Origin: an uncultured bacterium
GTDB taxonomy: Bacteria > Fermentibacterota > Fermentibacteria > Fermentibacterales > JCC-6
Assembly: GCA_964607515.1 (NCBI GenBank)
Contig: CAZSKU010000012.1
Coordinates: 1,058-65,057 of the forward strand
Length of the DNA: 64,000 bases
Reading direction: 5' to 3'
Below the pieces are notes generated by a model that was given only the letters and a program-made list of their open reading frames with translations, did not search any database and was not told where the DNA came from. Every line of letters starts with the position of its first letter. The stretch's first letter is position 1. This document shows, in pieces, positions 11,238 to 55,892 of this stretch. The position numbers were made by a program, and so were the translations under genes.

Positions 11238-11957
11238 GTGGAGGAGGGCCCTCCCCACCGGGAACGGTTCCTGCTCAAGCTCAGCGGCGAAATCCTCGCC
11301 GGCGGCAGGGGACACGGAATAGATCCCGACACTGTGGTCCGCTTCGCCCGGGAACTGGCTGACCTGGCATCCCGGGGCTATCAGCCCGGAGTGGTGGCCG
11401 GGGGCGGCAACTTCCTCAGGGGCCGCGACACCACCGACACGACCCGCACCACCGCCGACTACATGGGCATGCTGGCGACGGTCATCAACTCCCTGGCCCT
11501 GTCCGACGCTGTGCTCCGGGCGGGAGGGAGGTCCACGGTGCTGGGCGCCTTCCCCTTTCCCGAGGCCGGTGTCGAGGTCTTCAGCCCCCGACGGGCGGAG
11601 CGGCTTTTCGAAGCCGGCGAAGTGGTGTTCTTCGCGGGTGGCACCGGCAACCCCCATCTCAGCACCGACACCGCGGCTGCTCTCAGGGCCGCCCAGACCC
11701 TTTGTTCCACCCTCTACAAGGGCACCAAGGTGGACGGAGTGTACGACCGCGACCCCAAAAAGCACCCCGGCGCCGTCCGGTTCGAGAGGTTGGGTTACCG
11801 GCAGGTCCTGGCCATGGACCTGGGCTTCATGGACGCCGCCGCCGTGGCAGTCTGCCGCGACGCGGGAATCAGAATCGCCGTTTTCGACCTGACCGGGCCC
11901 GGCAACCTCAGCAGCGTCCTCTCCGGCGGGCTTCCGGTCACGGTGGTGGAGGATTGA
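11238..11957 (+). CDS. pyrH: UMP kinase
   Basis: RFLLKLSGEIL...VVAGGGNFLRG...GTGNPHLSTDTAAALRAAQ...TKVDGVYDRDP. Confidence 0.95.
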   Translation: MEEGPPHRERFLLKLSGEILAGGRGHGIDPDTVVRFARELADLASRGYQPGVVAGGGNFLRGRDTTDTTRTTADYMGMLATVINSLALSDAVLRAGGRSTVLGAFPFPEAGVEVFSPRRAERLFEAGEVVFFAGGTGNPHLSTDTAAALRAAQTLCSTLYKGTKVDGVYDRDPKKHPGAVRFERLGYRQVLAMDLGFMDAAAVAVCRDAGIRIAVFDLTGPGNLSSVLSGGLPVTVVED

Positions 11958-11959
11958 TC

Positions 11960-12517
11960 ATGCAGGAGCAGATACTTTCAGAGGTCCGCGAGAAATCGTC
12001 GAAAACCGTGCAGAACACCTCCAGGGAGATGTCGGTGATCCGTACGGGCAAGGCCAGCCCCGCCCTGCTGGACAACATCCGGGTGGAGTGCTGGGGCGAC
12101 AGCCTGCCCATCAGGCAGGTGGCCGGCATCAGCGCTCCTGAACCTCGGATGATAGTGATCCAGCCGTGGGACCAGTCCACCGCGCCGGCCATCGCCAGGG
12201 CCGTGGAGGCAAGCGAACTGGGCCTCCGGGCCACCGTGGACGGGCCGGTCATCAGGATACCCGTGCCGAAGCTCTCCGAAGAGCGCCGCAGAGACCTGAC
12301 CAAACTGGTGAAGAAACTGGCCGAGGATGGGAAAACCGCCCTCAGGAATGTCCGCCGGGACGCCAACGACCAGTTGAAGAAGGCGTGCAAGGCCGGGGAG
12401 ATCACTGAGGACACCGAGAAGAAAACCCAGGACCTGGTCCAGAAGGCGGTGGACGAAGCCACGGCGGAGATAGACCGGCTTCTCAAGGCCAAGGAGAAGG
12501 AAATCCTGGAGGTCTGA
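11960..12517 (+). CDS. frr: ribosome recycling factor
   Basis: LSEVREKSSKTVQNTSREMSVIRTGKASPALLDNIRVECWGDSLPIRQVAGISAPEPRMIVIQPWD. Confidence 0.95.
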   Translation: MQEQILSEVREKSSKTVQNTSREMSVIRTGKASPALLDNIRVECWGDSLPIRQVAGISAPEPRMIVIQPWDQSTAPAIARAVEASELGLRATVDGPVIRIPVPKLSEERRRDLTKLVKKLAEDGKTALRNVRRDANDQLKKACKAGEITEDTEKKTQDLVQKAVDEATAEIDRLLKAKEKEILEV

Positions 12518-13221
12518 TGCCCGTTCCCCGCCATGTGGCCATAATCATGGACGGAAACGGCCGGTGGGCCAGAAAACGGGGGCTTCCCCGGACCGACGGC
12601 CATGCAGCCGCCGAGAGGGCTATTCACACCGCGGTGGAGTTCTGCGGCGAGACCGGAATCGAGTTTCTCACCCTCTACGCGTTCTCCACGGAAAACTGGA
12701 GCAGACCCAGGCTGGAGGTCGCCTTCCTGATGAGGCTTCTTTCCAGTTTCATCTCCAGGAACATCGACGAGCTGGACCGGAAGAGGGTCAGGCTCCGGGT
12801 TACCGGCCGGTTCGGCGACCTTCCGAAGAAGCAGCGGGATGACCTCACCGCAGCCATGAAAAGAACCTCGGACAACCCCGGGCTGACCCTGGTTCTGGCC
12901 CTGAGTTACGGAGGAAGGGCGGAGATCCGTGACGCCGTAGCTGACCTGGCGGCACGGGTAGCCCGGGGGGAGCTTTCCCCCGGGGACATCACCGAGGAAA
13001 CCATCGGTTCTCTGCTCTACAACCCGGACATTCCGGACCCCGACCTGATCATTCGAACCTCAGGGGAACAGCGGCTCAGCAACTTCCTGCTCTGGCAGTC
13101 GGCCTACAGCGAGCTGTATTTCACACCGGTTCTCTGGCCGGACTTCCGCAGGGAGCACTTCCAGTCGGCCCTCGACGACTACTCCCAGAGGGGCCGGCGC
13201 TACGGCGGGCTGACCAGTTGA
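12517..13221 (+). CDS. uppS: undecaprenyl diphosphate synthase
   Basis: PRHVAIIMDGNGRWARKRGLPRTDGH...FSTENWSRP...RTSGEQRLSNFLLWQSAYSELYF. Confidence 0.95.
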   Translation: MPVPRHVAIIMDGNGRWARKRGLPRTDGHAAAERAIHTAVEFCGETGIEFLTLYAFSTENWSRPRLEVAFLMRLLSSFISRNIDELDRKRVRLRVTGRFGDLPKKQRDDLTAAMKRTSDNPGLTLVLALSYGGRAEIRDAVADLAARVARGELSPGDITEETIGSLLYNPDIPDPDLIIRTSGEQRLSNFLLWQSAYSELYFTPVLWPDFRREHFQSALDDYSQRGRRYGGLTS

Positions 13222-29077: not shown

Positions 29078-30364
29078 ATGACAAGGACAACGCCCCTGCT
29101 TCTCCTGTTCCTGGCCGCTCTTGCTGCGGCCCAGACCGGAGAGACCCAGCCACCCCCCGCGGACTCCGGGGTCGTCGAGTCGGCCGCGGAACCCTTACCG
29201 GCGGAACCCGAACCGGTTCCCGCGGCTGAGATCGCCCCCCCGGGGGGAATACTGGTGACGGACTACCCGGACGACGCCGGCGACAGGCTCATGGTCTGTT
29301 TCGAGCCGGGCGCCGAAGCCGGCGATCCCGACCTCTTTGCGGCGTACCAGGTTTTCAGGAGACCCCTCGGGGCGCCTGACTCGGCCTGGGCCATGGTTAA
29401 CATGATCCCGGTGGGCGAGGGAACCAGCTTCATAGACGGCTTCGACCCGGACTTCCCCGTGGAGGAGGGTGCGCAGTACGAGTACCGGGTTGACGCACTC
29501 TACCTGGATCAGACCGTGGTTGCGGGGGAGGCCATTGCCGCCCAGGAGGTCGCATCCGGCCAGTGGTTCCACACCGGCAAAGTCAGGGTGCTGGTCGCCT
29601 GCGCCATATTCCTCGGCCTCATCTTCTACTTCTTCTCCCGGGCCAAGACCGGCGCCAGCATGTACCTTCGGCCGATCGCCGGCATCGAGGCCATTGACGA
29701 GGCCATCGGGCGGGCCACGGAAATGGGCAAGCCCATTCTTTACGTCCCGGGGCTTTCCTACATCGAAGACGTGGCAACCATCGCCAGTCTGACCATCCTG
29801 GGAAGGGTGGCCAGGAAGGTGGCGGAGTACCAGACTCCCCTGTGCGTACCCAACACGGACCCCATAGTCTTCACCGTGGCGGAGGAGGCGGTGAAGCAGG
29901 CGTACCTGGAGGCCGGCCGCCCCGACTCCTACGACCCTGACAGCGTGTTCTTCCTGACCCAGAGCCAGTTCGCCTTCGTGGCGGGGGTGAACGGGATCAT
30001 GATGCGCCAGAAGCCCGCCACCAACTTCTACCTGGGCATGTTCTGGGCTGAGAGCCTGATTCTTGCCGAGACGGGGTCCCTCTCCGGGGCGATCCAGATA
30101 GCCGGCACCGACGCGGTCACCCAGCTTCCCTTCTTCATCACCACCTGCGACTACACCCTGATCGGCGAGGAACTCTACGCCGCCAGCGCCTACCTCAGCC
30201 GGGAGCCCATGCAGATGGGCTCCATCAAGGGACTGGACGCGTGCAAGGCGATACTGATGGTCTTCATCACACTGGGCATCATTCTCGCCCTTGTGGATGT
30301 GGCTGCGGAAACCCAAACCCTGGCGTGGCTCAAAGACCTGGTAACGTCTCAGGTGATGGACTAG
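29078..30364 (+). CDS. uncharacterised membrane protein A1: signal peptide, Ig-like extracytoplasmic domain, TM, conserved ~180-aa core, C-terminal TM
   Basis: MTRTTPLLLLFLAALAAAQT signal peptide. An extracytoplasmic domain contains DGFDPDFP...YEYRVD. TM helix VLVACAIFLGLIFYFF. Conserved core YLRPIAGIEAIDEAIGRATEMGKPILYVPG...FFITTCDYTLIGEELYAASAYL. No family recognised. First gene of the coupled operon. Confidence 0.6.
   Translation: MTRTTPLLLLFLAALAAAQTGETQPPPADSGVVESAAEPLPAEPEPVPAAEIAPPGGILVTDYPDDAGDRLMVCFEPGAEAGDPDLFAAYQVFRRPLGAPDSAWAMVNMIPVGEGTSFIDGFDPDFPVEEGAQYEYRVDALYLDQTVVAGEAIAAQEVASGQWFHTGKVRVLVACAIFLGLIFYFFSRAKTGASMYLRPIAGIEAIDEAIGRATEMGKPILYVPGLSYIEDVATIASLTILGRVARKVAEYQTPLCVPNTDPIVFTVAEEAVKQAYLEAGRPDSYDPDSVFFLTQSQFAFVAGVNGIMMRQKPATNFYLGMFWAESLILAETGSLSGAIQIAGTDAVTQLPFFITTCDYTLIGEELYAASAYLSREPMQMGSIKGLDACKAILMVFITLGIILALVDVAAETQTLAWLKDLVTSQVMD
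29668..30196 (+). repeat. near-identical duplicated segment, copy 1 (inside A1); perfect-identity core about 29768..30195
   Basis: By direct comparison it matches 39258..39784. About 428 bp are 100% identical, with few-mismatch flanks. The coding sequence on either side is divergent. Confidence 0.8.
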
Positions 30365-30386: not shown

Positions 30387-31031
30387 GTGAAGAGAGCTGT
30401 TCCCCTCATGATAGTCCTGGTGGGCGGAGTACTGATGATTATCCAGTACTTCATTCCCCACCGGATATCCCAGGATATTTTCGACAACTACACCATCTGG
30501 ATCCCCATCATAGGAGCCTTCGCCCTGGTTCTGGGCGTTGGCAGCCTCACCAGGCTTCACGGCCACCGGGTGAGGAACCGGGCTCCCAACTGGCCCTACA
30601 GCCTGGCGGTGATCGTTCCGATCTACCTCATGCCCATATTCGCCCTGCTCCTTCCGACCTCGGTCGGAGGCGGCATGGAAGCCCCCAGCGTATTCAACTT
30701 CGCCTTCATGCACATACAGGTTCCCATCCAGTCCACCATGTTCAGCCTCTTGGCCTTCTACATCGCCAGCGCCGCTTTCCGGGCCTTCCGGGCCAAGAGC
30801 CTTCTAGCCACGGTGCTGCTGCTCACGGCGGTGATAGTGATGATGGGGCAGGTTCCCATCGGCGAGCTTCTGGGAAGCTGGTTCCCGAAGCTGGGCCTCT
30901 GGATAATCGACTTCCCCAACAACGCCGCCAAGAGGGCCATCGGTCTCGGGGTGGGATTCGGCATTCTGGCCACCCAGCTCAAGATCATTTTCGGCGTCGA
31001 GCGTAATTGGCTCGGCGGCGCCGGTGATTAG
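30387..31031 (+). CDS. uncharacterised polytopic membrane protein B (about 5-6 TM)
   Basis: The GTG start is preceded by GGAAGGAG. Multiple hydrophobic helices. No family recognised. Confidence 0.55.
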   Translation: MKRAVPLMIVLVGGVLMIIQYFIPHRISQDIFDNYTIWIPIIGAFALVLGVGSLTRLHGHRVRNRAPNWPYSLAVIVPIYLMPIFALLLPTSVGGGMEAPSVFNFAFMHIQVPIQSTMFSLLAFYIASAAFRAFRAKSLLATVLLLTAVIVMMGQVPIGELLGSWFPKLGLWIIDFPNNAAKRAIGLGVGFGILATQLKIIFGVERNWLGGAGD

Positions 31032-31042
31032 GGGGTGAAGAC

Positions 31043-32044
31043 ATGAAGGAAAACATCTGGAGCAGAATGCTCAACCTGGACAGGCGATGGATCTTCCTCT
31101 TCATAGGGGTCGTCTGCATCGTTCCGTTCTTCATTCCCTTCGGGCTGCCGCTGATACCCACCCAGCACGTCATTTCCATTTTCGACTACATCGAGGGGCT
31201 CGGCCCCGAGAACGCCATCTTCGTGAGTTTCGACTTCGACCCGGGCACGGACCCGGAGAACATGCCCATGGCGGTGGCCGTCACCAGGCACGCCTTCGCC
31301 AGGCATATCCCTGTGTTCTTCACCGCCAACGCCCCGCTGGCGCAGGGAATGCTGGAGTCGGGATTCGCCTACGTGACCAATCCTCACAGCGAAGACTACT
31401 TCCACGTGGTGACCTGGCCCGAGTGGGCCCCCTACCGGGAGATGGGCATCACCGAAAGGGACCAGCTGGAGGCCGCCTGGGAGGCTGACGGGAACGTGCT
31501 TCCTGCGAATGCCGCCGGATGGGTGTTCGAAGGACGTGATTTCGCCAAGCTGGGCTACCTCCCCTACTTCAGCCTCGTGATCCTGGGCATGACCTCCTCC
31601 ATCGCAGCCCAGTACCCGGAGGACATGAGCGGCAACCCCTTGGCGGAGATGCCCATGCTTCAGGAGCACAAGAGCCTCAGGGAAGTGGACCTTGCCACGA
31701 CCTTCGCCGGAAGCGCCGCCTGCATGTGGTGGGTCACCTACGCCCGTGAAAAGATCGGCCTTCCGGTGGCCTTCGGGGTCACTGCGGTCAGCGCCACCGA
31801 CTACACCATCTACATCCAGTCGGGCCAGCTGGTGGGCCAGATGGGCGGACTGCGGGGCGCCGCGGAGTACGAGGTTCTCCTGCAGCAGAAAGGCTACTTC
31901 GAGCAACCCGACAGAGCCTTCATCGGAATGGACGTCCAGAACGCGGCGCACCTGCTGATCTTCTTCTTCATCGTGCTTGGCAACATCGCCTACTTCGCCG
32001 GGGGTTTCCATAAAAAGGGCGCACTGCTGAAGGGAAGGAGGTAG
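31043..32044 (+). CDS. uncharacterised membrane-anchored protein C (N- and C-terminal TM helices flanking a soluble domain)
   Basis: RBS GGGGGTGAAG. N-terminal helix WIFLFIGVVCIVPFFIPFGLPLI and C-terminal helix LLIFFFIVLGNIAYFAGGF. Lies 11 bp after B. Confidence 0.55.
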   Translation: MKENIWSRMLNLDRRWIFLFIGVVCIVPFFIPFGLPLIPTQHVISIFDYIEGLGPENAIFVSFDFDPGTDPENMPMAVAVTRHAFARHIPVFFTANAPLAQGMLESGFAYVTNPHSEDYFHVVTWPEWAPYREMGITERDQLEAAWEADGNVLPANAAGWVFEGRDFAKLGYLPYFSLVILGMTSSIAAQYPEDMSGNPLAEMPMLQEHKSLREVDLATTFAGSAACMWWVTYAREKIGLPVAFGVTAVSATDYTIYIQSGQLVGQMGGLRGAAEYEVLLQQKGYFEQPDRAFIGMDVQNAAHLLIFFFIVLGNIAYFAGGFHKKGALLKGRR

Positions 32045-32047
32045 ACC

Positions 32048-32677
32048 GTGTACGAAACCATCGGAATCTGGGTAGCGGCCATCTTCACCCTGGCCATGTA
32101 CTCCTTCCTTTACAAGGAGAACCCCCTGTACCGCCTCGGTGAGCATCTGGTAGTCGGCATATCAACAGGGTACTTCATCGTTCTCACCTACACCCAGGTG
32201 TTGAAACCCAGGCTCATAGACGCCATCGCCCTGGAGAACCAGTGGATCCTGGTGATTCCGGCCCTGCTGGGTCTTCTGTACGTCACCCGGTTTTTCCCCA
32301 AGATCGCCTGGCTCTCCCGGTACCCCATGGCCTTCATCATGGGCACAAGCATGGGCGTGGGCTTCCCGCTGTCCATGAAGGCCAGCGTCCTGAGGCAGCT
32401 GGAAGCCACGATTCTGCCGTTGTACCAGGCGGGGATGCCCTGGCAGATCCTGGCGGGCAACATCATCCTGGTGTTCGGAACCCTGGCGGCTCTGATCTAC
32501 TTCTTCTTCAGCAAGCCCCACAGGGGTCTTTTCTTCGGAACCGGGTCCAAGATCGGGATCTGGGTCATCATGATCGGATTCGGAGCCACCTTCGGCTTCA
32601 CCGTCATGGGCCGGATCAGCCTGTTGATCGGAAGGGTGCAGTTCCTTCTGAAGGACTGGCTGGGTGTGATCAACTGA
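32048..32677 (+). CDS. uncharacterised polytopic membrane protein D (about 5-6 TM)
   Basis: The GTG start is 3 nt after the stop of C. Similar size and topology to B. Confidence 0.55.
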   Translation: MYETIGIWVAAIFTLAMYSFLYKENPLYRLGEHLVVGISTGYFIVLTYTQVLKPRLIDAIALENQWILVIPALLGLLYVTRFFPKIAWLSRYPMAFIMGTSMGVGFPLSMKASVLRQLEATILPLYQAGMPWQILAGNIILVFGTLAALIYFFFSKPHRGLFFGTGSKIGIWVIMIGFGATFGFTVMGRISLLIGRVQFLLKDWLGVIN

Positions 32678-32750
32678 CGGGAACGCCCCCGGTCCTTCCC
32701 GGGCCGGGGGCGCCCATCCTTCCAGAGTGTTCCGGGAGAGGGAGGCTGGC

Positions 32751-35498
32751 ATGAACGGCCTGATCCTGGTAACGGACATCGGAAGCACCACCACAAAGGC
32801 TCTTCTGCTGGATACCGCCGGGGGAATACTCACCCCGGTGGAGAGTTGCGAGGAGCCCACCACCGTGGAAAAACCCCACGAAGACGTGGCCGTCGGTCTG
32901 TTCCGGGCGGTGGACGGCTTGTCCCGCCTGTCCGGAGTGCAGCTGAGGGATGGCGGCCGGTTCCTGGTGCCGTTTTACGCCACCAGTTCAGCGGGAGGCG
33001 GTCTGCAGATACTGGTGATCGCCCTGGCATCCCGTGACACCGGAACAGTGGCAAGGGCGGTGACCTGCGGGGCCGGAGGGGTGGTGCTGGACGCTTTCAA
33101 CATCGACGATGATACCCCAAGAGTGGAGAAGATTCAGAGGATGGCGGGCCTCTCCCCCGACCTGGTGGTGCTGGCGGGAGGGTACGAGGACGGGGCCCTG
33201 GCCGCGGTGGTGAACATGGCCCAGTTGCTTGCCCAGGCAAGCCCCAAACCGAAATACCGGGCAGGAACCCTTCCGGTGGTGTTCTGCGGAAACTCGAAGG
33301 CGGGGGAGTTCGTCAGGGAAGCCCTCGGGGCTGGTTTCAGGCTTTACTGCACGGAGAACATCAGGCCCTCGGGGCTGGAACTCAATCTCAGACCCGCCGT
33401 ACAGATGGTCCAAAGACTCTTCATGGACCACGTGATGCAGATGGCGCCGGGCTACAGTTCCATAGCCGGAGCCGTGTCGGCTCCGATTGTCCCCACACCC
33501 TCGGGCGTGGAACGGATACTTTCCCTGTGGTGCCGGGAGACCGGCAAGTGTGCTCTGCTTGCGGATATGGGCGGGGCCACCACGGACGTGTTCACCGCGG
33601 TCGCCGGGGGGGTCGCGCGAACCGTGAGCGCCAACATCGGGATGAGTTACAGCCTGTCAAACATCCTCAGGGAGGCCGGTCTTCCGGGGATCATGAGGCA
33701 CCTGCCCGGGGTGGATCCTTCACCGGTGCGGGACCGGATACTGGAGAAGACCCTGTTTCCAACCCGGCCCCCCGGCGACGACTTCGGGCTTCGGGTGGAA
33801 CACTCCTGCGCCGCGGAAGGCATGGCCCTGGCCTGCCGGCAGCACCTGGAGTTCTCCTACCGACGGGCCAGGGTGGGTTTTCTCGATCGGCTCAAGCTTC
33901 TTGGAAGGTGCAAGTTCGATCAGAGGTTCAGAACCCTGGACGAGAAGGAAGGCTTCAGCCTGAGCGACTTCGGAACCCTGATCGGAGCCGGCGGCGTCCT
34001 GGCCCACGCCCCAGGGCGTAGGGCCGCCTGGATACTCGCCCAGGGATTCTTTCCCCGGGGAGTCACCACCCTGATGGTGGACAGCCCTTTTCACAGCCCC
34101 CACATGGGTGTGCTCAGCAGCTCCTTTCCCGAGATGGCCCTGGGCTACTACCGCAGCCACTGCCTGAAATCGGTCTGCCGGGTGGTCACCCCGACAGGCT
34201 CCCTCCGGCCTGGCAGGCCGGGGATCGGAGTAAGGGGCCCCCACGTCGAGACGATGGTCCTGGGCGGCGACTTCCTGTACCTGGAGGACGGGAAGGGAAC
34301 GTCCGCCGGAAACTGGCGGGAGACCGAGAGCATTCCGATGCTGGTTGACTGCAGGACGAACCCCGATCAGACACTTCCCGTGGATTTCGACAAGAGGCCG
34401 GCGGAGGTGCTCCCGGTGCCCGCCGCCCGTGAACGACAGGCGAGGTTCTCCGAGCCGGGAGAAATCCTGCACACCTTCTCCCTGCCCTATCCGGGAGAGA
34501 TACTGGTGGGCGCCGGAGATACCGTGGAGCCCGGAACCCTCCTGGGAAGGAACCCTCTCAGCCCTCCAATGGTCTACTTCCTGGACGTCAGGACATCGGG
34601 GGGCTATGACGACGCCACTCCCACCGGGGAAATCCTGGACGGGGTGCTGGTGGCTCCGGGAGACGTTGTGAACCCGGGAAAGCAGGTGTTCCGCAGGATT
34701 GTCAGGCACGGCCTCACCCGGGAGGTACACGAGTTGAAAAGCCCCGTCCGGGGCTTGGTGACCGGTATCGTCCCCCCCGGGCTTGTCTGCCTCAGGGAGA
34801 TACAGGACTACGACGGCAAGCCCCACGTGGTGGATGTGGCGGGACCCCTGGGGATAAAGCCAGGGCACATCCACAGATTCCTGAAGGTGAAGAAGGGCGA
34901 TTTCGTGCTTCAGGGGCAGGCTCTGGCGGCGGGGGAAAGGTTTCCGATGGTAAAGAGCCCGTCCGCTGGCACCATCACAGAGGTGGACAGGGAGTCGGGC
35001 ACCGTGACCGTGCACTACAGAACGGTTCCCGTGGACATGCGATCGCCCATCCACGGGGTTGTGTCGGGGGTTGTTCCGGAGCACTCCGTGACCCTGTCCT
35101 TCCGGGGAACAGTGATGGAGGGGGTGCTGGGGCTGGGAAGGGACACCTACGGCGTCTTCTCCACGGAGCCGGCCCCTGGAGCCCTGGTTCTCAGGATGGG
35201 AACGATGACTCCGGAGGATCTGAGGCGGGCCGTGGACTGCGGCGCGGCGGCGGTGGTATCTGCGGGGATTTCAGGGGAACTGGTGTCCGGCTACCTGGGG
35301 GAGGATCCCGGGGTGATACTCACCGGGGGCGAGGACCTCCCTGTATCCCTGATGGCCGTGTGCGGCGCGGGCTTGAGAAGGTTTTCCGGGGATATATGGA
35401 GGACTCTGGAGGGGCTGCCCGGCCGCCGGGGCGCTCTGTTCACAACCACCAGGATAAGGGCCGGGGTGGAGAGACCCAGGCTTTTCATGGAGGAATGA
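32751..35498 (+). CDS. large ASKHA-superfamily ATPase (GlmL/MutL/EutA-like N-terminal half) fused to a ~450-aa C-terminal region with repeated barrel-sandwich-hybrid-like hairpins
   Basis: The ATG is preceded by GGGAGG. LVTDIGSTTTKALLLD (phosphate-1) and LLADMGGATTDVFTAV (phosphate-2) are typical of GlmL-type actin-fold ATPases. The C-terminus has repeated GDxVxPGxxL-type motifs (GDTVEPGTLLG, GDVVNPGKQVF, KKGDFVLQGQAL). Confidence 0.65.
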   Translation: MNGLILVTDIGSTTTKALLLDTAGGILTPVESCEEPTTVEKPHEDVAVGLFRAVDGLSRLSGVQLRDGGRFLVPFYATSSAGGGLQILVIALASRDTGTVARAVTCGAGGVVLDAFNIDDDTPRVEKIQRMAGLSPDLVVLAGGYEDGALAAVVNMAQLLAQASPKPKYRAGTLPVVFCGNSKAGEFVREALGAGFRLYCTENIRPSGLELNLRPAVQMVQRLFMDHVMQMAPGYSSIAGAVSAPIVPTPSGVERILSLWCRETGKCALLADMGGATTDVFTAVAGGVARTVSANIGMSYSLSNILREAGLPGIMRHLPGVDPSPVRDRILEKTLFPTRPPGDDFGLRVEHSCAAEGMALACRQHLEFSYRRARVGFLDRLKLLGRCKFDQRFRTLDEKEGFSLSDFGTLIGAGGVLAHAPGRRAAWILAQGFFPRGVTTLMVDSPFHSPHMGVLSSSFPEMALGYYRSHCLKSVCRVVTPTGSLRPGRPGIGVRGPHVETMVLGGDFLYLEDGKGTSAGNWRETESIPMLVDCRTNPDQTLPVDFDKRPAEVLPVPAARERQARFSEPGEILHTFSLPYPGEILVGAGDTVEPGTLLGRNPLSPPMVYFLDVRTSGGYDDATPTGEILDGVLVAPGDVVNPGKQVFRRIVRHGLTREVHELKSPVRGLVTGIVPPGLVCLREIQDYDGKPHVVDVAGPLGIKPGHIHRFLKVKKGDFVLQGQALAAGERFPMVKSPSAGTITEVDRESGTVTVHYRTVPVDMRSPIHGVVSGVVPEHSVTLSFRGTVMEGVLGLGRDTYGVFSTEPAPGALVLRMGTMTPEDLRRAVDCGAAAVVSAGISGELVSGYLGEDPGVILTGGEDLPVSLMAVCGAGLRRFSGDIWRTLEGLPGRRGALFTTTRIRAGVERPRLFMEE

Positions 35499-35815
35499 TG
35501 AATCCAGAGGAGCTGATGGGTTGTTTTCCCGGAGTAGTCCTGGACTCCGGAAACCATGTTCTTTTCCGTGGATTGCGGATAGGCTCGCTGGAAACATCCG
35601 GCGGAACAGTTATCTTCAGGCTTCTGGTCCACCGGCTGGATTACGGGCCGCTGCTTTCGGAGTACCCCTTCCTGATTCCGTCCACTGAAGGCTTTGTAGA
35701 AGTGCTGCTGGGGGATACGCCCGGTGAGGAGGTTGTGTCGGCCCTGCTGGAGTGCATCAGGAGCTCCGTGGACCGTGCCGCCGAAACATCGGGAGAGAGT
35801 ATAATTGCGCAGTGA
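35495..35815 (+). CDS. small hypothetical protein (possibly roadblock/LC7-like), translationally coupled to the ATPase
   Basis: ATGA overlap with the upstream stop. 106 aa. The roadblock-like assignment is tentative. Confidence 0.4.
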
Positions 35816-35841
35816 AACCCGAAACCGCAGGGAGGTTTGAC

Positions 35842-35994
35842 ATGTGGGTTTGCCAGGCGTGCGGGTGGGTCTACGATCCCGCTCAGGGTGACCCGGACGG
35901 AGGAATCGCTCCGGGGACGGCGTTCGAGGATATCCCCGACGACTGGGTGTGCCCGGTCTGCGGCGTTGGCAAGGACATGTTCGAGAAGGAATGA
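35842..35994 (+). CDS. rubredoxin
   Basis: [12 protein letters not shown]...[16 protein letters not shown]: two CxxCG knuckles. RBS GGAGG. 50 aa. Confidence 0.85.
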
Positions 35995-36260
35995 GGATTC
36001 CAGTGAAAGAAACCATCGTTGCCATACTGGTATCCCACAGGAACCAGGCCGCTGTCAATGTTCAGAAGGTGCTGACCGGCTGGGGCTGCATGATCAAGAC
36101 AAGGCTCGGGATACACGAGGGCACCATGGAGGACTGCTCCGAGAGGGGGCTCATCATCCTGAGCCTGACAGGAGAGGAAGAGAAGAAAGAGGAACTGGTC
36201 AGGAAGCTCAACGCCCTGAGCGACGTAACCGCCAAGAGGGTGGACCTGGCGCTTGACTGA
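35991..36260 (+). CDS. small ACT-like protein (TM1266/TIGR03959-like)
   Basis: ATGA overlap with rubredoxin. [34 protein letters not shown]...[27 protein letters not shown] resembles TM1266-type ACT-fold proteins. Confidence 0.4.
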
Positions 36261-37053: not shown

Positions 37054-37129
<76 letters not shown>

Positions 37130-37142
37130 ACCCCCTTTCACC

Positions 37143-37532
37143 ATGAAGTACGATCCCAACGCCGTCACGATTCAGCCCATGGGCGCCGGAGGCCCCGGAG
37201 GCCAGCACCAGAACCGCAGCTTCACCGGGGTCACCCTGATTTTCAGCATATCCGACAGCGGGCTCCCCGAGGAAGTGGCCCAGCGGCTTCGGGAAGCCGC
37301 AGGATCCCGGCTGAACCAGCGTGACGAGATAATCATCCAGGCCAGGGAACACAGGAGTTTCGAACAGAATCTCAGGGCCGCCAGGAAAAGGCTGGAGAGG
37401 CTTCTGGACCGGGCAGGCCGGGCTCCGGCGGTCAGGATTCCCACCAGCCCGTCCAAGGCGTCACGGGAAAGAAGACTGCAGGAAAAGCGCCTTCGCGGGG
37501 AAATCAAGAAAAGGCGAACCGAAGATTTCTAG
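37143..37532 (+). CDS. arfB: alternative ribosome-rescue factor ArfB (peptidyl-tRNA hydrolase, RF1-type GGQ domain)
   Basis: GPGGQHQNRSFTGVTL GGQ motif, plus a basic C-terminal tail (KRLQEKRLRGEIKKRR). Confidence 0.8.
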   Translation: MKYDPNAVTIQPMGAGGPGGQHQNRSFTGVTLIFSISDSGLPEEVAQRLREAAGSRLNQRDEIIIQAREHRSFEQNLRAARKRLERLLDRAGRAPAVRIPTSPSKASRERRLQEKRLRGEIKKRRTEDF

Positions 37533-38710
37533 GGTTCTATGACAAGGTAAGGGGCGTCTTCCTGGAGCTGCACGACCCTCCCTATGACCGCTGAGGCGGT
37601 ATCCCCCCCCTGGTGAAGACGGTCCAGGGCCTCGCCGGCCTGATCGGGGCGTACGGCAGCCAGAAGACCCCCGGAAGTCTGTGCGTCGAACAGGAGTTTG
37701 ACCAGGTCCGGATCCAGACCCTCGGTCATGGAGACGTTTTCCCCCACGTACTTCCTGTTGTTGCCCGAGCCGCCGGGGAAGAAGTCCCTGGCGAACTTCC
37801 TTCCCCCCGGGAACAGCGGGACGCTGTCGGCGTTGAAGGAAAACCCCACCCCTCCGCTTCGTGCCATTATCAGGGCGTGCCCCAGCAGCCCGAATCCCGT
37901 GATGTCTGTCATGGCGCTGACATCCAGCTCCCTGAGAATCCGGGAAGCGTAAAGGTTCAGCCTCTCCATGGAAGCCACAACCGGACGGAACAGAGAATGG
38001 GGAAGGGCGGAAGCCTTGTTGGCGGTGGTCAGCACACCGGAGCCGAGAGGCTTGGTGATTACCAGAAGGTCTCCCGGACGGGCCATGGAATTCCGAAGGG
38101 CCTTTCCCGGATCTATCACCCCGGTGACGCTGAGGCCGAATACCACCTGATCCTGTTCCATGGTGTGTCCGCCCACCAGGACGACTCCAGCCTCAACCAT
38201 CTTCTCGCAGGCGCCGGACAGGATCTGCTCCACGATATCGGAATCCAGAACATTGCCCGGAAAACACAGGAGGTTCATGGCTGTCAGGGCGTCGCCGCCC
38301 ATGGCCCAGACGTCGGACATGCTGTTGGCGGCGGCGATCCTGCCGAACTCGAGCGGGCTCGGAACTATCGGCTGGAAGAAGTCCACGGTCTGCACCAGTG
38401 CCTTGTCCGGCGTCAGCAGATAGACCCCTGCGTCATCCATGGACTCCATGCCCACGATGAGATTCTGCGACCGGATCCTTGGGAGCCTCTCAAGAATCCC
38501 CGACAACCTGCCGGGGGACATCTTGCCGGCTCAACCGGCGCATGCGGCGTAGTCCATCAGATTGATGGAAGGCTTCGCCATCGCCCCAGCCTTTCCCAGA
38601 ACATCCTTCTCGCAGTACACCTGTTCCCCCAGGAGTTCATGGAACTTCCTGCATGCGACGCAGTCGCCGTGGCGTTCGCACTCCATGGGACAGGGGCAGT
38701 TGATGTTCAT
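37529..38710 (-). CDS. selD: selenide, water dikinase SelD with in-frame UGA (Sec) codon and a Cys-rich N-terminal extension
   Basis: ORF 37529..38521 carries SelD motifs (LVGMESMDDAGVY...GGHTMEQ...MTDITGFGLLGH). In-frame upstream the reading continues MAKPSINLMDYAACAG-TGA(38531..38533)-AGKMSPGRL, so the TGA sits at the position of the catalytic Cys/Sec. The frame stays open to the ATG at 38710 (MNINCPCPMECERHGDCVAC...), preceded by AAAGGGGA. Translation from 38581 is an alternative start. Confidence 0.75.
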
Positions 38711-38737: not shown

Positions 38738-38766
38738 ATTATACCAGGCCTGGTGTGCTTCTCCAA
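38738..38766 (-). promoter_or_regulatory. candidate sigma70 promoter for selD (-35 TTGGAG, 17-nt spacer, -10 TATAAT)
   Basis: Read on the minus strand: TTGGAGaagcacaccaggcctggTATAAT. It lies about 25 nt upstream of the 38710 ATG. Confidence 0.4.
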
Positions 38767-38796
38767 TTCCGGGGACGGTCGCGAAAGGGCGGTCAC

Positions 38797-39951
38797 ATGG
38801 TTCACCTGCTCATGCCGGGGGTACTCTGCCTGATGGTTCCGGAAATAGCGTCGGTAACCGATGTTCCCAACGACGCCGGCGAATTGCTGATGGTGGAGGT
38901 GTCGTTTCCCTCAGGGGTCGAGGAGGTCGGCGGTTTCCTCCTCTGGCGCACACCCGCCGACCTGGACGCCTGGGAGCTGGTGATGGTGGAGGCTCTCCCG
39001 CTGGAGTCCAACCTGCTGATGGACGGTTTCGATCCGGACTATCCCCTGGTTCCCGGAACCCGGTACCTGTACCGTCCCGGATTGATCACCCTTCAGGGGG
39101 ACACCCTCCCCGGCCCGGTCTTCACTGGCGCCGAAGCTCCCTCGGGGTCATGGTTCAACACCGGCGAGACGCCCACCCTGGCGGCCTGCCTGATTTTCAT
39201 GGCGCTGATCTTCTACTACTTCCAGAGAGCCCTCAAGGGCGCGGAGTTCTACCTCCGGCCGATCGCCGGCATCGAGGCCATTGACGAAGCCATCGGACGG
39301 GCCACGGAAATGGGCAAGCCCATTCTTTACGTCCCGGGGCTTTCCACCATAGACGACGTGGCAACCATCGCCAGTCTGACCATCCTGGGAAGGGTGGCCA
39401 GGAAGGTGGCGGAGTACCAGACTCCCCTGTGCGTACCCAACACGGACCCCATAGTCTTCACCGTGGCGGAGGAGGCGGTGAAGCAGGCGTACCTGGAGGC
39501 CGGCCGCCCCGACTCCTACGACCCTGACAGCGTGTTCTTCCTGACCCAGAGCCAGTTCGCCTTCGTGGCGGGGGTGAACGGGATCATGATGCGCCAGAAG
39601 CCCGCCACCAACTTCTACCTGGGCATGTTCTGGGCTGAGAGCCTGATTCTTGCCGAGACGGGGTCCCTCTCCGGGGCGATCCAGATAGCCGGCACCGACG
39701 CGGTCACCCAGCTTCCCTTCTTCATCACCACCTGCGACTACACCCTGATCGGCGAGGAACTCTACGCCGCCAGCGCCTACCTGGGGCGGGAGCCCAGGCA
39801 GATGGGGGGTATAAAAAGCCTTGACGCATGCAAGGTCATCATCATGACCCTTATAGTTTTGGGAGTAATCGCATTCCTGGCGGATTTCCTGGCCGGAACG
39901 GATTTCCTTCCGCGGATCAGGGGCTGGATCACCACCCCCGAGGGCTTCTGA
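38797..39951 (+). CDS. uncharacterised membrane protein A2, orphan paralog of A1
   Basis: Same architecture as A1: N-terminal hydrophobic leader, Ig-like domain with DGFDPDYP, a TM helix, a core essentially identical to A1, and a divergent C-terminal TM tail. RBS GCGAAAGGGCGG resembles the A1 RBS GCGAAAGGCGGG. Confidence 0.6.
   Translation: MVHLLMPGVLCLMVPEIASVTDVPNDAGELLMVEVSFPSGVEEVGGFLLWRTPADLDAWELVMVEALPLESNLLMDGFDPDYPLVPGTRYLYRPGLITLQGDTLPGPVFTGAEAPSGSWFNTGETPTLAACLIFMALIFYYFQRALKGAEFYLRPIAGIEAIDEAIGRATEMGKPILYVPGLSTIDDVATIASLTILGRVARKVAEYQTPLCVPNTDPIVFTVAEEAVKQAYLEAGRPDSYDPDSVFFLTQSQFAFVAGVNGIMMRQKPATNFYLGMFWAESLILAETGSLSGAIQIAGTDAVTQLPFFITTCDYTLIGEELYAASAYLGREPRQMGGIKSLDACKVIIMTLIVLGVIAFLADFLAGTDFLPRIRGWITTPEGF
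39258..39784 (+). repeat. near-identical duplicated segment, copy 2 (inside A2)
   Basis: See copy 1 at 29668..30196. Confidence 0.8.
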
Positions 39952-39964
39952 CAAGCGGGCAGAA

Positions 39965-40423
39965 ATGACGATAAGGTTCATGCGGCCCGAAGACCACAGG
40001 CAGCTGGTGGAACTTTGGAGCGGTTCACCGGGCAATGCGGTCACCCGCGCGGATTCGTACGAGGAGTTCTCCGAGTTTCTGGCGAGGAACGGCGAGTTCT
40101 GCTTCACCGCAGTGGACAGGGCAGGAGACGGGATCCTGCATGCTGCCGGGAGCGTCATGGCCGGAAGCGACGGCAGAAGGGGATACGTGTACCATCTGGC
40201 CGTGAGAGAGGATCTTCGGGGAAGAGGGCTGGGAGGCAGGCTCATGCGGAGCGTGGAGGAGGCGCTGAAGCGCTCGGGGCTCGAGAAGATCCACCTCTTC
40301 ATCTACCGCGACAACCCGGCGGTGGCCTTCTACGAGAAAATGGAATGGCATGTGCGCCATGACATTCTGGTGATGAGCCGGGTGCTGGAAGGTCCCGGAC
40401 AGGATCGGAACAAAGGAAGATGA
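39965..40423 (+). CDS. GNAT family N-acetyltransferase
   Basis: YHLAVREDLRGRGLGGRLMRSVEEALK acetyl-CoA-binding motif (R/Q-x-x-G-x-G/A). Confidence 0.8.
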   Translation: MTIRFMRPEDHRQLVELWSGSPGNAVTRADSYEEFSEFLARNGEFCFTAVDRAGDGILHAAGSVMAGSDGRRGYVYHLAVREDLRGRGLGGRLMRSVEEALKRSGLEKIHLFIYRDNPAVAFYEKMEWHVRHDILVMSRVLEGPGQDRNKGR

Positions 40424-40490
40424 TGCCTTCCCTCGGTTGACAAATGCGCGCTCTTGTTATAGCATCACAATTCCAAGGAAGGAGGGTTCC

Positions 40491-41048
40491 GTGAACAAGG
40501 TTTTATTGGTCCTCATGGTCGTCTCTCTGGCCGGTGCCGAGGTTCTCCAGTACGACGACGGCACTCCCGCCCAGCATACCTTCGAAGGGATCTGGCGGGG
40601 AGTGTCCTTCGACGTGCAGGACTTCAACCCCGATGCAACGGGTTTCCTGCTTCAGCAGGTGGAGTACTGGTTCTTCGACTCCGGTTCCCCCGCCTGGGAC
40701 ACGGCCGAGTTCTGGGCCGAGGTTTTCAGCGGCGGGATCGGCGGGCCCGAGGCCATGTACGTGGTTGAGCAGCTTACCGCGGTGCACTACGCCCCGGTAT
40801 ACCTCAACCTGGGTGGCGGAGTGCCCGTACCCCAGGGCTTCTGGTGCGTAGCCAGCAGCCAGCTCAGCACCAACGGTTCGCCCTCATTGATGGGCGACGC
40901 AGCGGCAGGCTCCGGCAGGAGCTTTTACTCCAACGACCTCTCGAACTGGACCCCCTGGGCCGCCGGTGATTACATCATCAGGGCCCACGGGGAGTACTCG
41001 TACTCCCTAGACGCCCGCAGCTGGGCGCAGATCAAGAACCTGCCGTAG
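40491..41048 (+). CDS. secreted hypothetical protein
   Basis: The GTG start is preceded by AAGGAAGGAGGG. Signal peptide VNKVLLVLMVVSLAGA. No family recognised. Confidence 0.5.
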   Translation: MNKVLLVLMVVSLAGAEVLQYDDGTPAQHTFEGIWRGVSFDVQDFNPDATGFLLQQVEYWFFDSGSPAWDTAEFWAEVFSGGIGGPEAMYVVEQLTAVHYAPVYLNLGGGVPVPQGFWCVASSQLSTNGSPSLMGDAAAGSGRSFYSNDLSNWTPWAAGDYIIRAHGEYSYSLDARSWAQIKNLP

Positions 41049-53058: not shown

Positions 53059-55749
53059 TCAGTCCCGGCTGCCGTTTATCTCCTTCCACACCTCCACCAG
53101 CCCCTCCTCCCCGGGTTCCTGGCTCCAGCGCCTGTTCACGAAAAGGTTCACCATCCTGTTGTTGGATGAGGTGGTCTGAGCCTCTATCCGTCTGGCTCCC
53201 CAGTCCCTGGCTATCTTCTCGCAGAAGTCCGTGAGGATTCCCCCGAGGCCCATGTTCTGCCAGGGGTCGCCCACCAGAACCGCGTACTCGGCGGTTTCCA
53301 TTCCCGGATCCGCCACCAGCCTTCCCACTCCGAGGAGCTTTCTGGCGCCGTCGTGTTCCAGCTCCGCCACGATTGCCAGTTCCCTGTCATAGTCTATGTA
53401 GCAGTGTCTGACAGCCGCCTCGTGGGTTGCCCAGTGGTAGAAGAACCTGAACCTGGAGTAGATGGATTCCCGGGAGCAGGAGCCCAGCAGCTCCAGCCAC
53501 ATGGGTTCGTCCTCCGGGCGGATCGGCCGCAGGAGCACCCGGGTGCCGTCCTTCATGACCGCGGTTTCCACGAACTCTTCCGGATAGGGCCGCAGCGCCA
53601 GGTGACCGAAGGGTTTTCCGGGTACTGCGCCGGGGTCCACCAGTGCCCTGGCGTCCAGGGCAAGAGCGCCGTTTTCATCGACCAGCAGCGGGTTGATGTC
53701 CATCTCCCTGATCGCCGGGTTGTCGCTGGCGATGTAGGAGAGCCTCATCACGGTGGTGACAAGGGCGTCCATGTCCACCCCGGGCCTTCCCCGGTAGCCC
53801 TTCAGCAGAGGCAGTATTCGAAGCTGCTCCAGCATCCGCATCACCAGGGTCTCGTTCAGCGGCGGGAACCCCAGGGCCCTGTCTTCAAGGATCTCCGCGT
53901 TGACCCCCCCGGCTCCCAGCATGATCACCGAACCGAACACCGGATCCCGCTTGAAGCCCGCTATCATCTCCACACCCTGGAAGACGTTGGCCATCTTCTG
54001 CACCGTAACCCCCCGGATAAGCGCTCCCGGCTTCCATTCCGCAGCCCTCTTCACGATCCTGTCGAAAGCCGTCCTCACCTGAAGGTGGTCTTCGAGGTTC
54101 AGCTCCACGCCGCCCGCCTCGGATTTGTGCGTGATGTCCGGGGAATCGAGCTTCAGCACCACCGGGTATCCCGTTTTCTCCGCGGCGGCCACCGCATCGT
54201 CAGGCCCCTTCGCAGGCACCGGCAGGGTGGAGGAAATCCCGTAGAACTCGAGGATACGCTTGGAGTCGGTCTCCGATAGCATTTTCGTGTTCTGCGCGGG
54301 AAGACCGTCGAGGAAAGCTGAAGCTTTGCCGCGGCCTTCCGAAAGATCGAGCCTGATGTCCCGGGGAGTCTGGTGAAGGGATTCTAGGTTGCGGGAATAA
54401 CTCACCAGAGTCATGAAAGCTTCGACGGCCTGTTCAGGGGTGTCGTAGACCGGAATACCGCACTCAGCAAGTATCCTGGCTCCCTCCCTGACCGTCTCTC
54501 CCCCCATCCAGGCCGCCAGAACGGGCTTCCTTGAGCTTTCCGAGAGCTTGCCAATGGATTTAGCGACACCGTCGGGTTTTGTCATGGCCTGGGGTGTAAG
54601 GATCACCAGCAGCGCGTCCACCCCCTTGTCCGCCAGAACCAGAGAGGATGCCTTCTCATAGCGCTTCGTGTTGGCGTCACCCAGGATGTCCACCGGGTTC
54701 CCGCCGGACCAGAAGCCCGGAAGGCACTCGTCCAGTGCGGACACGGTCTCTCCGGACAACTCCGCAAGCGACCCGTTTCCCGCCATGAGCGCGTCCACCG
54801 CCATCACACCGGGACCTCCGGCATTGGACACTATTCCCAGCCTTGGTCCCTTTGGAATCCTCTTTCGCCCGATGAGTTCGGCGCATCCGAATATTCCGCC
54901 CACGTTAAGCACCCGGGCCATGCCCGCCCGGGAGAAGGCCGCGTCGTACACCGAATCCTCCGAGACCATGGCCCCCGTATGGGAAGCGGCCACGGCGGCG
55001 GATCTGGGAAAACGGCCCGCCTTGTACACGATGATGGGTTTTGTTCTGGCGAACGCCCTGGAGGCGGTCATGAACCTTCTGGCCCTGGTCACCGATTCCA
55101 CGTAGAGGATTATGGATTCGGTGGACTCGTCTTCGCCGAAGTAGTCAATCAGGTCGGCGAAATCAACATCCAGGGCATTTCCCACCGAGACGAAGGCCGA
55201 GAAGCCGATTTTTTCCTGCCTGGCCCAGTCCAGCACCGAGGTGCACAGTGCGCCGGACTGGCTGATGAAGGCCACGCTTCCCTTTTCAGGCATGGCGGGG
55301 GCGAAGCTGGCGTTGAGGTTCGCCGAAGGGACTATGACCCCCAGGCAGTTGGGCCCAAGCACCCTCATCTCAGGATTGTCCCTGAGTATGCCCTCCAGGT
55401 TCCGCTGCATGGCAGCCCCTTCGGGCCCTGATTCCCCGAAGCCGGCGGACATGATGATGACGCCTCTGACGCCGGCCGCGGCACACTCCCTCAGGATGCC
55501 CTCCACCTCGCCCGCCGGGGAACACACCGTCACCAGGTCGGGAGTTCTGGGAAGGGACCCGATGGATGGGTAGCATGGAACCCCCAGGACCGCTTCGCTG
55601 CCGGGATTCACAGGGTACACCACACCCCGGAAGGCGCTCCCCACCAGGTTCCTCAAAACCCTCCCCCCGACGCTGTTGGGGTTGATGGTGACTCCGGTGA
55701 TGGCGATTCTCGTGGGTTTCAGAATGCTGTCCAGACCGTGAACGTTCAT
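53059..55749 (-). CDS. Pat/YfiQ-like protein acetyltransferase (NDP-forming acyl-CoA synthetase alpha/beta domains fused to C-terminal GNAT)
   Basis: CoA-binding and ligase-CoA domains, an ATP-grasp region, and a C-terminal GNAT (VGRLVADPGMETAEYAVLVGDPWQNMGLGG). I chose the internal start MNVHGLD, which has GGAGG 9 nt upstream. Confidence 0.8.
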   Translation of the reverse strand: MNVHGLDSILKPTRIAITGVTINPNSVGGRVLRNLVGSAFRGVVYPVNPGSEAVLGVPCYPSIGSLPRTPDLVTVCSPAGEVEGILRECAAAGVRGVIIMSAGFGESGPEGAAMQRNLEGILRDNPEMRVLGPNCLGVIVPSANLNASFAPAMPEKGSVAFISQSGALCTSVLDWARQEKIGFSAFVSVGNALDVDFADLIDYFGEDESTESIILYVESVTRARRFMTASRAFARTKPIIVYKAGRFPRSAAVAASHTGAMVSEDSVYDAAFSRAGMARVLNVGGIFGCAELIGRKRIPKGPRLGIVSNAGGPGVMAVDALMAGNGSLAELSGETVSALDECLPGFWSGGNPVDILGDANTKRYEKASSLVLADKGVDALLVILTPQAMTKPDGVAKSIGKLSESSRKPVLAAWMGGETVREGARILAECGIPVYDTPEQAVEAFMTLVSYSRNLESLHQTPRDIRLDLSEGRGKASAFLDGLPAQNTKMLSETDSKRILEFYGISSTLPVPAKGPDDAVAAAEKTGYPVVLKLDSPDITHKSEAGGVELNLEDHLQVRTAFDRIVKRAAEWKPGALIRGVTVQKMANVFQGVEMIAGFKRDPVFGSVIMLGAGGVNAEILEDRALGFPPLNETLVMRMLEQLRILPLLKGYRGRPGVDMDALVTTVMRLSYIASDNPAIREMDINPLLVDENGALALDARALVDPGAVPGKPFGHLALRPYPEEFVETAVMKDGTRVLLRPIRPEDEPMWLELLGSCSRESIYSRFRFFYHWATHEAAVRHCYIDYDRELAIVAELEHDGARKLLGVGRLVADPGMETAEYAVLVGDPWQNMGLGGILTDFCEKIARDWGARRIEAQTTSSNNRMVNLFVNRRWSQEPGEEGLVEVWKEINGSRD

Positions 55750-55892
55750 GCTTGATGCCTCCGGTGGAGCGGAACTATTCCGATTAAGGGAATACACTGG
55801 TTCCTTTGCCGGAAATATGTTCACACCTGTTGCCCGGGGAGGTATGTCATCTGAAACGGAACATTGCATCGAGCCGGGAGTCCGCCCCCAAG

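Follow-up and report, generated by a model that had tools for sequence, protein, structure and literature searches.

A 64,000-nucleotide stretch of an uncultured bacterium of the Fermentibacterota (contig CAZSKU010000012.1 of GenBank assembly GCA_964607515.1, positions 1,058 to 65,057; the whole stretch is referred to below as the window) carries two paralogous genes of the DUF6754 family, which we call A1 and A2. A1 stands at the head of a set of three membrane protein genes, B, C and D, with a gene for a MutL-like protein behind them; A2, the subject of this analysis, lies at 38797-39951. A first-pass annotation of the sequence had described A2 as an orphan copy of the first gene of this system, transcribed divergently from selD and lacking the partner genes, and had proposed that it could supply an alternative ectodomain subunit in the manner of a cassette. 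New in the present analysis are the orphan status of A2 throughout the phylum, its linkage to a gene for a GNAT acetyltransferase, and the ongoing, domain-restricted gene conversion that connects it to A1.

The A2 gene and its conserved surroundings

The features of A2 and of its immediate neighbours are as follows.

38797..39951, forward strand: A2 gene, orphan DUF6754-family paralogue, 384 amino acids (aa) (open reading frame; identical database protein; PF20539 at 382 bits)
38781..38792, forward strand: Shine-Dalgarno-like string GCGAAAGGGCGG upstream of the A2 start (GAAAGG conserved in close A1 and A2 orthologues; looks like a generic ribosome-binding site)
38797..38853, forward strand: N-terminal hydrophobic leader of A2, aa 1-19, probable signal peptide or anchor (hydropathy scan; AlphaFold2 helix at residues 2-13)
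38842..39111, forward strand: Fn3-fold beta-sandwich ectodomain of A2, aa 16-105, paralogue-specific
39160..39234, forward strand: transmembrane (TM) helix 1 of A2, aa 122-146 (hydropathy scan; AlphaFold2)
39142..39885, forward strand: DUF6754 domain match in A2, aa 116-363 (Pfam)
39256..39782, forward strand: conversion tract shared with A1 29669-30195, 521 of 527 positions identical (98.9%; DNA comparison)
39796..39894, forward strand: TM helix 2 of A2, aa 334-366 (hydropathy scan; AlphaFold2)
37529..38710, reverse strand: selD, selenoprotein form, TGA at 38531-38533, divergent neighbour of A2
39965..40423, forward strand: GNAT acetyltransferase gene, 13 bp 3' of A2, probable operon partner (PF00583; PRK03624-like in NCBIfam; adjacency conserved)

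The A2 reading frame runs from the ATG at 38797 to the TGA at 39949-39951 and encodes a product of 384 aa. An identical protein of equal length (P0001) is held by NCBI and ENA, so that A2 is already catalogued as a DUF6754 hypothetical protein. A longer frame starting from the GTG at 38755 is open in the window and was discarded; it is unconserved, and the close orthologues in loci L003 and L024 have an in-frame stop 9 codons 5' of the ATG. The protein matches the Pfam family DUF6754 (PF20539) with 382.1 bits, against a cut-off of 27, over model positions 2-249 of 257; A1 scores 388.4 bits, and E is about 1e-115 for both.

The AlphaFold2 model of A2 (mean predicted local distance difference test score, pLDDT, of 69) comprises an N-terminal helix (residues 2-13), a beta-sandwich (16-105, at a pLDDT of about 85), a TM helix (122-146), an alpha/beta core (157-330) and a second TM helix (334-366). 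The Pfam fn3 model (PF00041) does not match A2 at E <= 0.01 and matches some relatives weakly; by fold, the head of A2 is an Fn3 domain, with a seven-strand beta-sandwich that can be superposed on solved Fn3 domains. The predicted layout is a leader, a periplasmic Fn3 head, a TM helix, a cytoplasmic DUF6754 core and a second TM helix, the core being tentatively placed in the cytoplasm because basic residues come after TM helix 1 (positive-inside rule). TM helix 1 retains positions that are conserved family-wide.

A1 is built in the same way, as the first-pass annotation had it, with leader, Fn3 ectodomain, TM helix, DUF6754 core and TM helix. The two proteins are 70% identical over 369 aa, and A1 has, relative to A2, an extra Pro/Glu-rich linker of about 44 aa after the signal peptide. 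Across the phylum, the ectodomains of A1 and A2 are about 33% identical at the amino acid level and the cores about 90%; in this genome the cores are identical. The Fn3 head opens with a D-x-P-(N/D)-D-A-G motif (38853-38894 in A2, 29254-29295 in A1; consensus DTPNDAG-SITV-W), which is common to A1, A2 and DUF6754 proteins of other phyla and is the sole ectodomain stretch flagged between A1 and A2 by a repeat finder.

Among close relatives, the ratio of nonsynonymous to synonymous substitution rates (dN/dS) amounts to 0.1-0.3 for the ectodomain and 0.03-0.05 for the core of A1 and A2 alike. A2 is under purifying selection and is therefore a working gene; diversifying selection is not evident in either ectodomain at this resolution. 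The near-identical ribosome-binding context that had been pointed out for the two genes is present as described, with GCGAAAGGGCGG before A2 and GCGAAAGGCGGG 5' of the A1 start at 29078, and points to little beyond an ordinary ribosome-binding site. What the strings have in common is the Shine-Dalgarno-like GAAAGG, which is kept upstream of both genes in close relatives only, distant genera having GGAGG. As the shared string reduces to this element, we rejected it as a remnant of the duplication.

The partner genes lie upstream of A2.

29078..30364, forward strand: A1, DUF6754 paralogue at the head of the B-C-D set, 428 aa; conversion tract at 29669-30195
30387..31031, forward strand: B, polytopic membrane protein, no Pfam family
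31043..32044, forward strand: C, bitopic, domain of about 260 aa between two TM helices, no Pfam family
32048..32677, forward strand: D, polytopic membrane protein, no Pfam family
32727..35498, forward strand: 923-aa MutL/GlmL-family (PF13941) ATPase-like protein with a beta-rich C-terminal half

The window thus holds two A genes and a single copy each of B, C, D and the MutL-like gene. A1 is directly followed by B-C-D, whereas A2 has the GNAT gene next to it, and there is no second B, C or D in the 64 kb. Searches with B, C and D against Pfam returned only noise at E <= 10, NCBIfam gave no match for A1, A2, B, C or D, and hhalign detected no mutual homology among B, C and D. No PDB relatives were found for any A-B-C-D subunit, and none of the PADLOC anti-phage models matched A1, A2, B, C, D, the MutL-like protein or the GNAT. 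Our literature searches found no paper on DUF6754, PF20539 or PF13941, nor on the combination of WOR-3, Fn3 and Wzi, and the Hyd24-12 genome paper does not mention the A-B-C-D/DUF6754 genes. As an observation on the C subunit itself, about 45-50 aa are inserted in the Fermentibacteria version (columns about 120-175 of alignment A4), and the C proteins of Gemmatimonadota, Latescibacteria and WOR-3-like lineages lack them.

On its other side, A2 is separated from selD, on the minus strand, by a divergent intergenic region of 86 bp, in agreement with the earlier description. The downstream neighbour matches Pfam Acetyltransf_1 with 55.8 bits (cut-off 20.7), and its best NCBIfam hit, PRK03624, reaches 85 bits, below the cut-off of 124. 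A promoter-like site at 40437-40465, ahead of the gene that follows the GNAT, would fit an A2-GNAT bicistron, and the two genes are probably co-transcribed.

To see how far this arrangement extends, we turn to a genome scan with one genome per species, which returned 68 loci. With one exception they belong to Candidatus Fermentibacteria (Fermentibacteraceae, Sabulitectum and Aegiribacteria), and the closest share 76-85% identity with A2. Gene-order reconstruction gives a constant plan of serA-A1-B-C-D, then the MutL-like gene, then A2 with a GNAT. The closest genome, L157, whose A2 is 91% identical, has the same layout as the window. The MutL-like gene adjoins D in the closest relatives and lies 4-6 kb away in Sabulitectum; it was not detected in Aegiribacteria within the fetched flanks. 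Among about 45 A2-type loci from Fermentibacteria, not one has its own B-C-D beside A2, and A2 always lies about 2.5-10 kb from the single A1-B-C-D set. The orphan status that had been read from the window alone is thus borne out across the phylum.

The statement that A2 is followed only by a GNAT gene is correct for the window in that no B-C-D genes come after it, and it undersells the pairing. A2 and a GNAT are adjacent in both possible orders: Aegiribacteria have GNAT-A2, Fermentibacteraceae and Sabulitectum have A2-GNAT, and two GNAT genes are present in some genera. In Sabulitectum a second, overlapping GNAT gene lies between A2 and GNAT (A2-GNAT'-GNAT), and Aegiribacteria have the order A1-B-C-D-GT4 glycosyltransferase-GNAT-A2-GNAT'. 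There, the GT4 gene and two GNAT genes separate D from a Wzi-like gene encoded on the other strand (11634-13052, reverse strand, in L026). The divergence from selD is kept in Fermentibacteraceae and Sabulitectum and not in Aegiribacteria, where A2 lies on the same strand as D, about 2.5 kb downstream of it.

Gene conversion between the A1 and A2 cores

Over the ectodomain, TM helix 1 and the C-terminal parts, the DNA of A1 and A2 is about 50-58% identical. The near-identical tract listed above matches the cytoplasmic core that the two TM helices enclose, and contains an exact run of 428 bp (A1 29768-30195, A2 39355-39782). In unconverted genomes, the core region of A1 and A2 is 76-82% identical, with third codon positions at 0.40-0.55, and at a per-site identity of 0.8 the chance of an exact run of 428 bp is about 1e-41. 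The tract is the only long repeat between 27 and 42 kb of the window, where it forms a direct repeat with a spacing of 9,587 bp; this interval contains no inverted repeats, and there are no recombinase genes nearby.

In L157, A1 and A2 are 100% identical over codons 187-328, whereas the tract is 91.5% identical between L157 and the window species, so that over a bounded segment the copies within a genome resemble each other more than they resemble their orthologues, as concerted evolution predicts. Since A1 and A2 are identical in both species despite a tract divergence of 8.5%, homogenisation must have continued after speciation; had there been one ancestral event only, its trace would by now have decayed in the two genomes. 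Raised core identity within a genome is also seen elsewhere (0.98 in L051, 0.94 in L053+L039, 0.91 in L048, 0.89 in L023 and 0.85 in L024), and for about 8 of 38 genomes the A2 core has its nearest relative in the A1 of that very genome. Gene conversion between A1 and A2 is recurrent and ongoing, it is confined to the cytoplasmic core, and several other lineages have independent tracts of their own, in part decayed.

The process can also be followed below the species level. L156, which carries a strain variant of A1, has the A2 bases at 29701 and 29710, two mismatch sites in the left part of the tract, which indicates that tract length is polymorphic in the population. The diagnostic sites within the tract form a mosaic of A1-type and A2-type bases, and the direction of conversion is therefore not assignable. 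Two independent short contigs, L069 (ENA, with the exact A2 protein) and L156 (Logan, with the exact A1 protein), each cross the tract into unique flanking sequence. A1 and A2 make a tidy case of domain-restricted gene conversion in uncultivated bacteria, visible at both the species and the strain level.

The DUF6754 family and the rest of the window

A DUF6754 profile search returned 1,278 representatives, clustered at 50% identity, at E <= 1e-30; the total at E <= 0.001 takes in Fn3-only proteins as well. In these proteins DUF6754 is always C-terminal and follows ectodomains of very different length. The relatives come from Fermentibacteria, WOR-3, Latescibacteria, CSSED10 and Gemmatimonadota, and are named just "fibronectin type III domain-containing" or "DUF6754 domain-containing". 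A2 itself matches the Pfam model nearly end to end; it differs from nearly all other members of the family in standing outside an A-B-C-D operon.

A metagenome scan seeded with the profile of subunit C yielded 80 loci. A-B-C-D is an invariant unit, with the order B-C-D-A in Gemmatimonadota, and wherever the contig is long enough, an A-type gene has B-C-D next to it or no more than about 10 kb away. The unit is often repeated in tandem, and arrays of two or three complete, deeply diverged copies are found in L085-L087, L095, L099, L100, L102, L114, L117, L130, L133, L137 and L152. Between such co-resident complete modules, identity is 55-70% for the A cores, 38-55% for B, 31-52% for C and 42-58% for D. 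Orphan A copies occur outside Fermentibacteria in unrelated metagenomic lineages, with the order A-A-B-C-D-A-B-C-D in L070/L071 and a similar case in L112; their cores are 86-90% identical to that of the adjacent B-C-D-linked A. L149, another candidate for an orphan A, was rejected because it encodes a single A protein of 707 aa. A gene for an outer-membrane protein of the Caps_assemb_Wzi family adjoins the module in several lineages, following it in L072-L075, L129 and L151 and being present also in L077 and L133. In several loci, a MazG-like gene lies 5' of A.

In about 12 metagenomic loci, among them L082, L098-L100, L117, L133, L135, L137, L140, L146 and L152, a homologue of the MutL-like gene immediately precedes A-B-C-D. 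Counting the ATPase as part of the system, as had been done from the window alone, is therefore reasonable, and we have withdrawn the view that its linkage to the module is restricted to Fermentibacteria. The N-terminal 475 aa of the window protein match PF13941, the family of the GlmL/MutL accessory ATPases of B12-dependent mutases, at 246 bits. The protein differs from GlmL in scoring 134 bits against the NCBIfam equivalog cut-off of 475, in its extra beta-rich C-terminal half of about 450 aa, and in its linkage to A-B-C-D membrane modules instead of a mutase gene, which is absent near the window gene. The C-terminal half gives weak matches to the barrel-sandwich hybrid domains RnfC_N and NqrA_N.

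The other genes surrounding A2 in the window are housekeeping genes, among them dnaX, recR, recA, recX, uppS, rseP, an Omp85-family gene, uvrD and molybdenum-cofactor genes. In selD, the in-frame TGA sits in the motif AG-U-AGK. The protein has a Cys-rich N-terminal extension of 59 aa (MNINCPCPMECERHGDCVACRKFH...) without a Pfam match; extension and TGA are also found in Sabulitectum (L009), and gene callers break the gene into reading frames of 59 and 330 aa (L069, L157). The reading frame that follows the GNAT gene (40437-41048, forward strand) probably starts at a GTG at 40491 behind GGAGG and has a signal-peptide-like N-terminus and no Pfam family; it is present in the close relatives L001, L002, L004 and L157, whereas L003 and L024 lack it.

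Between the MutL-like gene and a DUF2400 gene lie small genes (35752-36260, forward strand), namely a rubredoxin-like reading frame at 35752-35994 (CxxC...CPxC) and a TM1266-like putative regulator of Fe-only hydrogenase at 35949-36260, in a layout identical to that of L157. A tRNA-Phe (GAA) gene at 37054-37129 (forward strand) is located between the DUF2400 gene and a reading frame with an RF-1 domain (ArfB-like, 37095-37532, forward strand). The longest call of the latter overlaps the tRNA, so that the gene probably begins further 3' (129 aa in L157). Further away, a 936-aa protein (53059-55869, reverse strand) joins a C-terminal GNAT domain to CoA-binding, succinyl-CoA-ligase-like and ATP-grasp domains, an architecture that we take to be that of a Pat/PatZ-type protein acetyltransferase. 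A bacterial small signal recognition particle RNA (1308-1406, forward strand; Rfam RF00169, 76.8 bits) lies upstream of dnaX.

Possible roles of A2 and comparison with known systems

We consider it about an even call that A2, conserved in the phylum, is a functional second A subunit that makes use of the single B-C-D set, for which it would most probably serve as an alternative periplasmic head. Transcription of A2 would start in its own divergent promoter region and probably extend into the GNAT gene behind it, and the protein would assemble with the B-C-D membrane set, and possibly with the MutL/GlmL-like ATPase, encoded 3-10 kb upstream. The same inner-membrane complex could in this way gain an alternative periplasmic Fn3 head. 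Since the A1 and A2 cores evolve very slowly, homologous recombination between the direct repeats 9,587 bp apart repeatedly copies a core segment of about 0.5 kb, which keeps the cytoplasmic domain of both paralogues identical while the ectodomain, both TM helices and the C-terminal tail stay paralogue-specific. The alternative ectodomain subunit of the first-pass annotation is plausible in view of the distinct ectodomain and the orphan status of A2, and the co-occurrence of the genes and the identity of the cores suggest that it may indeed assemble with B-C-D.

The case for sharing is circumstantial. A2 strictly co-occurs with and is linked to A1-B-C-D, has no B-C-D of its own anywhere in the phylum, and has been retained for a long time under selection. 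Because converted genes have been tolerated again and again, the A2 core appears interchangeable with that of A1. Judging from sequence comparison, the contrast between orphan A cores, which match a partnered copy at 86-90%, and the cores of A proteins that each have their own partners, which have diverged to 55-70%, points in the same direction.

Several observations weigh against a shared B-C-D set. The identity of the A1 and A2 cores across the phylum (0.90) equals that between orthologues (0.90 for A1 with A1, 0.91 for A2 with A2), so an old duplication and a slowly evolving core would suffice to account for it, and no special constraint need be invoked. The restriction of conversion to the core may simply reflect that no other part of the two genes is alike enough for recombination, and the tract is therefore no proof of a shared interface. 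In L070 and L112, the orphan copies may be no more than recent duplicates. Both TM helices, the likely contacts for polytopic partners, differ between A1 and A2 (about 58% nucleotide identity), and the conserved pairing with a GNAT hints at a function of A2 that is separate from, or additional to, B-C-D. Finally, the locus of a Fermentibacter daniensis-like clade (L032, L044, L046, L055-L057 and L060, including one closed chromosome) contains no A2, A1-B-C-D and the GNAT gene being kept, which indicates that A2 is old but dispensable.

Some of these points would be explained if A2 acted alone or with the GNAT(s), independently of B-C-D. Its DUF6754 core would then be self-sufficient and tethered to a periplasmic Fn3 sensor or binder, and conversion would be a passive by-product of similarity. 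The adjacency of A2 and GNAT in both orders, including the arrangements with additional GNAT genes in Sabulitectum and, next to GT4, in Aegiribacteria, fits such a role, as do the divergent promoter region, the TM helices that have diverged from those of A1, and the unchanged A1-B-C-D of the clade without A2. Against it speak the other A-type genes, which lie beside B-C-D in all surveys, the family-wide conserved positions that TM helix 1 retains, and the fact that A2 is never more than about 10 kb from A1-B-C-D; moreover, no GNAT is adjacent to the orphan A copies of other phyla. We regard independent action as somewhat unlikely, if a serious alternative.

A2 might also be a redundant isoform that fills the role of A1 under another promoter or regulation, the ectodomain differences being neutral. 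Identical cores, a common architecture, separate promoters and the loss of A2 in one clade would all agree with redundancy. A neutral duplicate, however, is expected to be lost or homogenised, whereas the A2 ectodomain forms a distinct orthologous lineage in at least three genera, with a dN/dS of 0.1-0.3 and an identity to the A1 ectodomain of about 33%, and we therefore consider redundancy improbable.

The cassette analogy does not hold up. A programmed variation system, in which A2 would act as a donor that swaps ectodomains into the expressed A1 locus in the style of pilS/pilE, could account for two recombining copies with variable N-termini and a common constant region, and in this A1 and A2 do resemble the pilE locus and its silent copies. 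Unlike a silent cassette, A2 is a complete, translatable gene with a start codon, a Shine-Dalgarno-like site and a leader, and it is under purifying selection. What is converted is the constant core and not the variable head, the ectodomains being stable orthologues across genera, and there is only one extra copy, with no inverted repeats and no recombinase or other dedicated recombination signals nearby. We give this possibility very little credence.

An explanation of the identical tract, or of A2 as such, by misassembly or by decay into a pseudogene is just as hard to credit: although the source is probably a metagenome assembly, in which exact repeats longer than the read k-mers can collapse or mis-join, the two-gene layout recurs in 68 independent genome loci, contigs L069 and L156 each span the tract, the sister genome L157 has the same pattern in a different sequence, the intermediate identities of 0.85-0.94 in other genomes are not producible by collapse, and the reading frames are intact with low dN/dS.

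Returning to A2 as a second head for a shared B-C-D set, our best guess as to the module, at low confidence, is an inner-membrane machine or transporter related to the cell envelope or to surface glycans. This weak lead comes from the periplasmic Fn3 head together with the large domain of subunit C, for which a location outside the membrane is predicted, from the ATPase-like partner in the cytoplasm and from the Wzi-like, GT4 and GNAT genes that recur nearby. A wider proposal seems to us less likely than not. The DUF6754-B-C-D module, often with a large MutL/GlmL-like ATPase, may be an unrecognised, widespread inner-membrane machine of Fermentibacteria, WOR-3, Latescibacteria and Gemmatimonadota, on whose common B-C-D part interchangeable A subunits with different periplasmic heads would dock via DUF6754. 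In Fermentibacteria, A2 would be a dedicated second head retained for as long as the phylum has existed. Its docking domain would then be kept identical to that of A1 by continual conversion because the partners are shared, and the Wzi-like, GT4 and GNAT neighbours would point to surface-glycan or envelope assembly.

The module is large and very strongly conserved, with more than 1,000 clusters (50% identity) matching at E <= 1e-30. It is located among core-genome genes, and three of its four membrane subunits have no Pfam family. The A1/A2 pair, with identical cores and different heads, maps the domains into a constant, probably partner-facing part and a part that is free to specialise, and offers a clean test case of whether one B-C-D set can serve two heads.

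Two further known systems invite comparison. Concerted evolution by gene conversion is exemplified by tufA/tufB in enterobacteria and by rRNA operons. Similar to these textbook cases, A1 and A2 are identical within a genome while their orthologues differ by 8.5%, the tract has sharp borders, and the process recurs in several lineages. They differ in that only a core of about 175 codons is homogenised, whereas identity remains at 50-58% in the ectodomain, the tail and both TM helices, resulting in two stable mosaic genes. The second comparison is an analogy with receptor families that work on one signalling or transport core, such as the several chemoreceptors with different periplasmic domains that dock onto one CheA/CheW set. 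No relationship in sequence or fold connects the two systems, and in most other lineages each A protein has its own B-C-D; the sharing of partners by A2 is a proposal. Similar to those receptors, the A proteins join a variable periplasmic head to a very conserved cytoplasmic module, and in the genomes with A2 there are more heads than partner sets.

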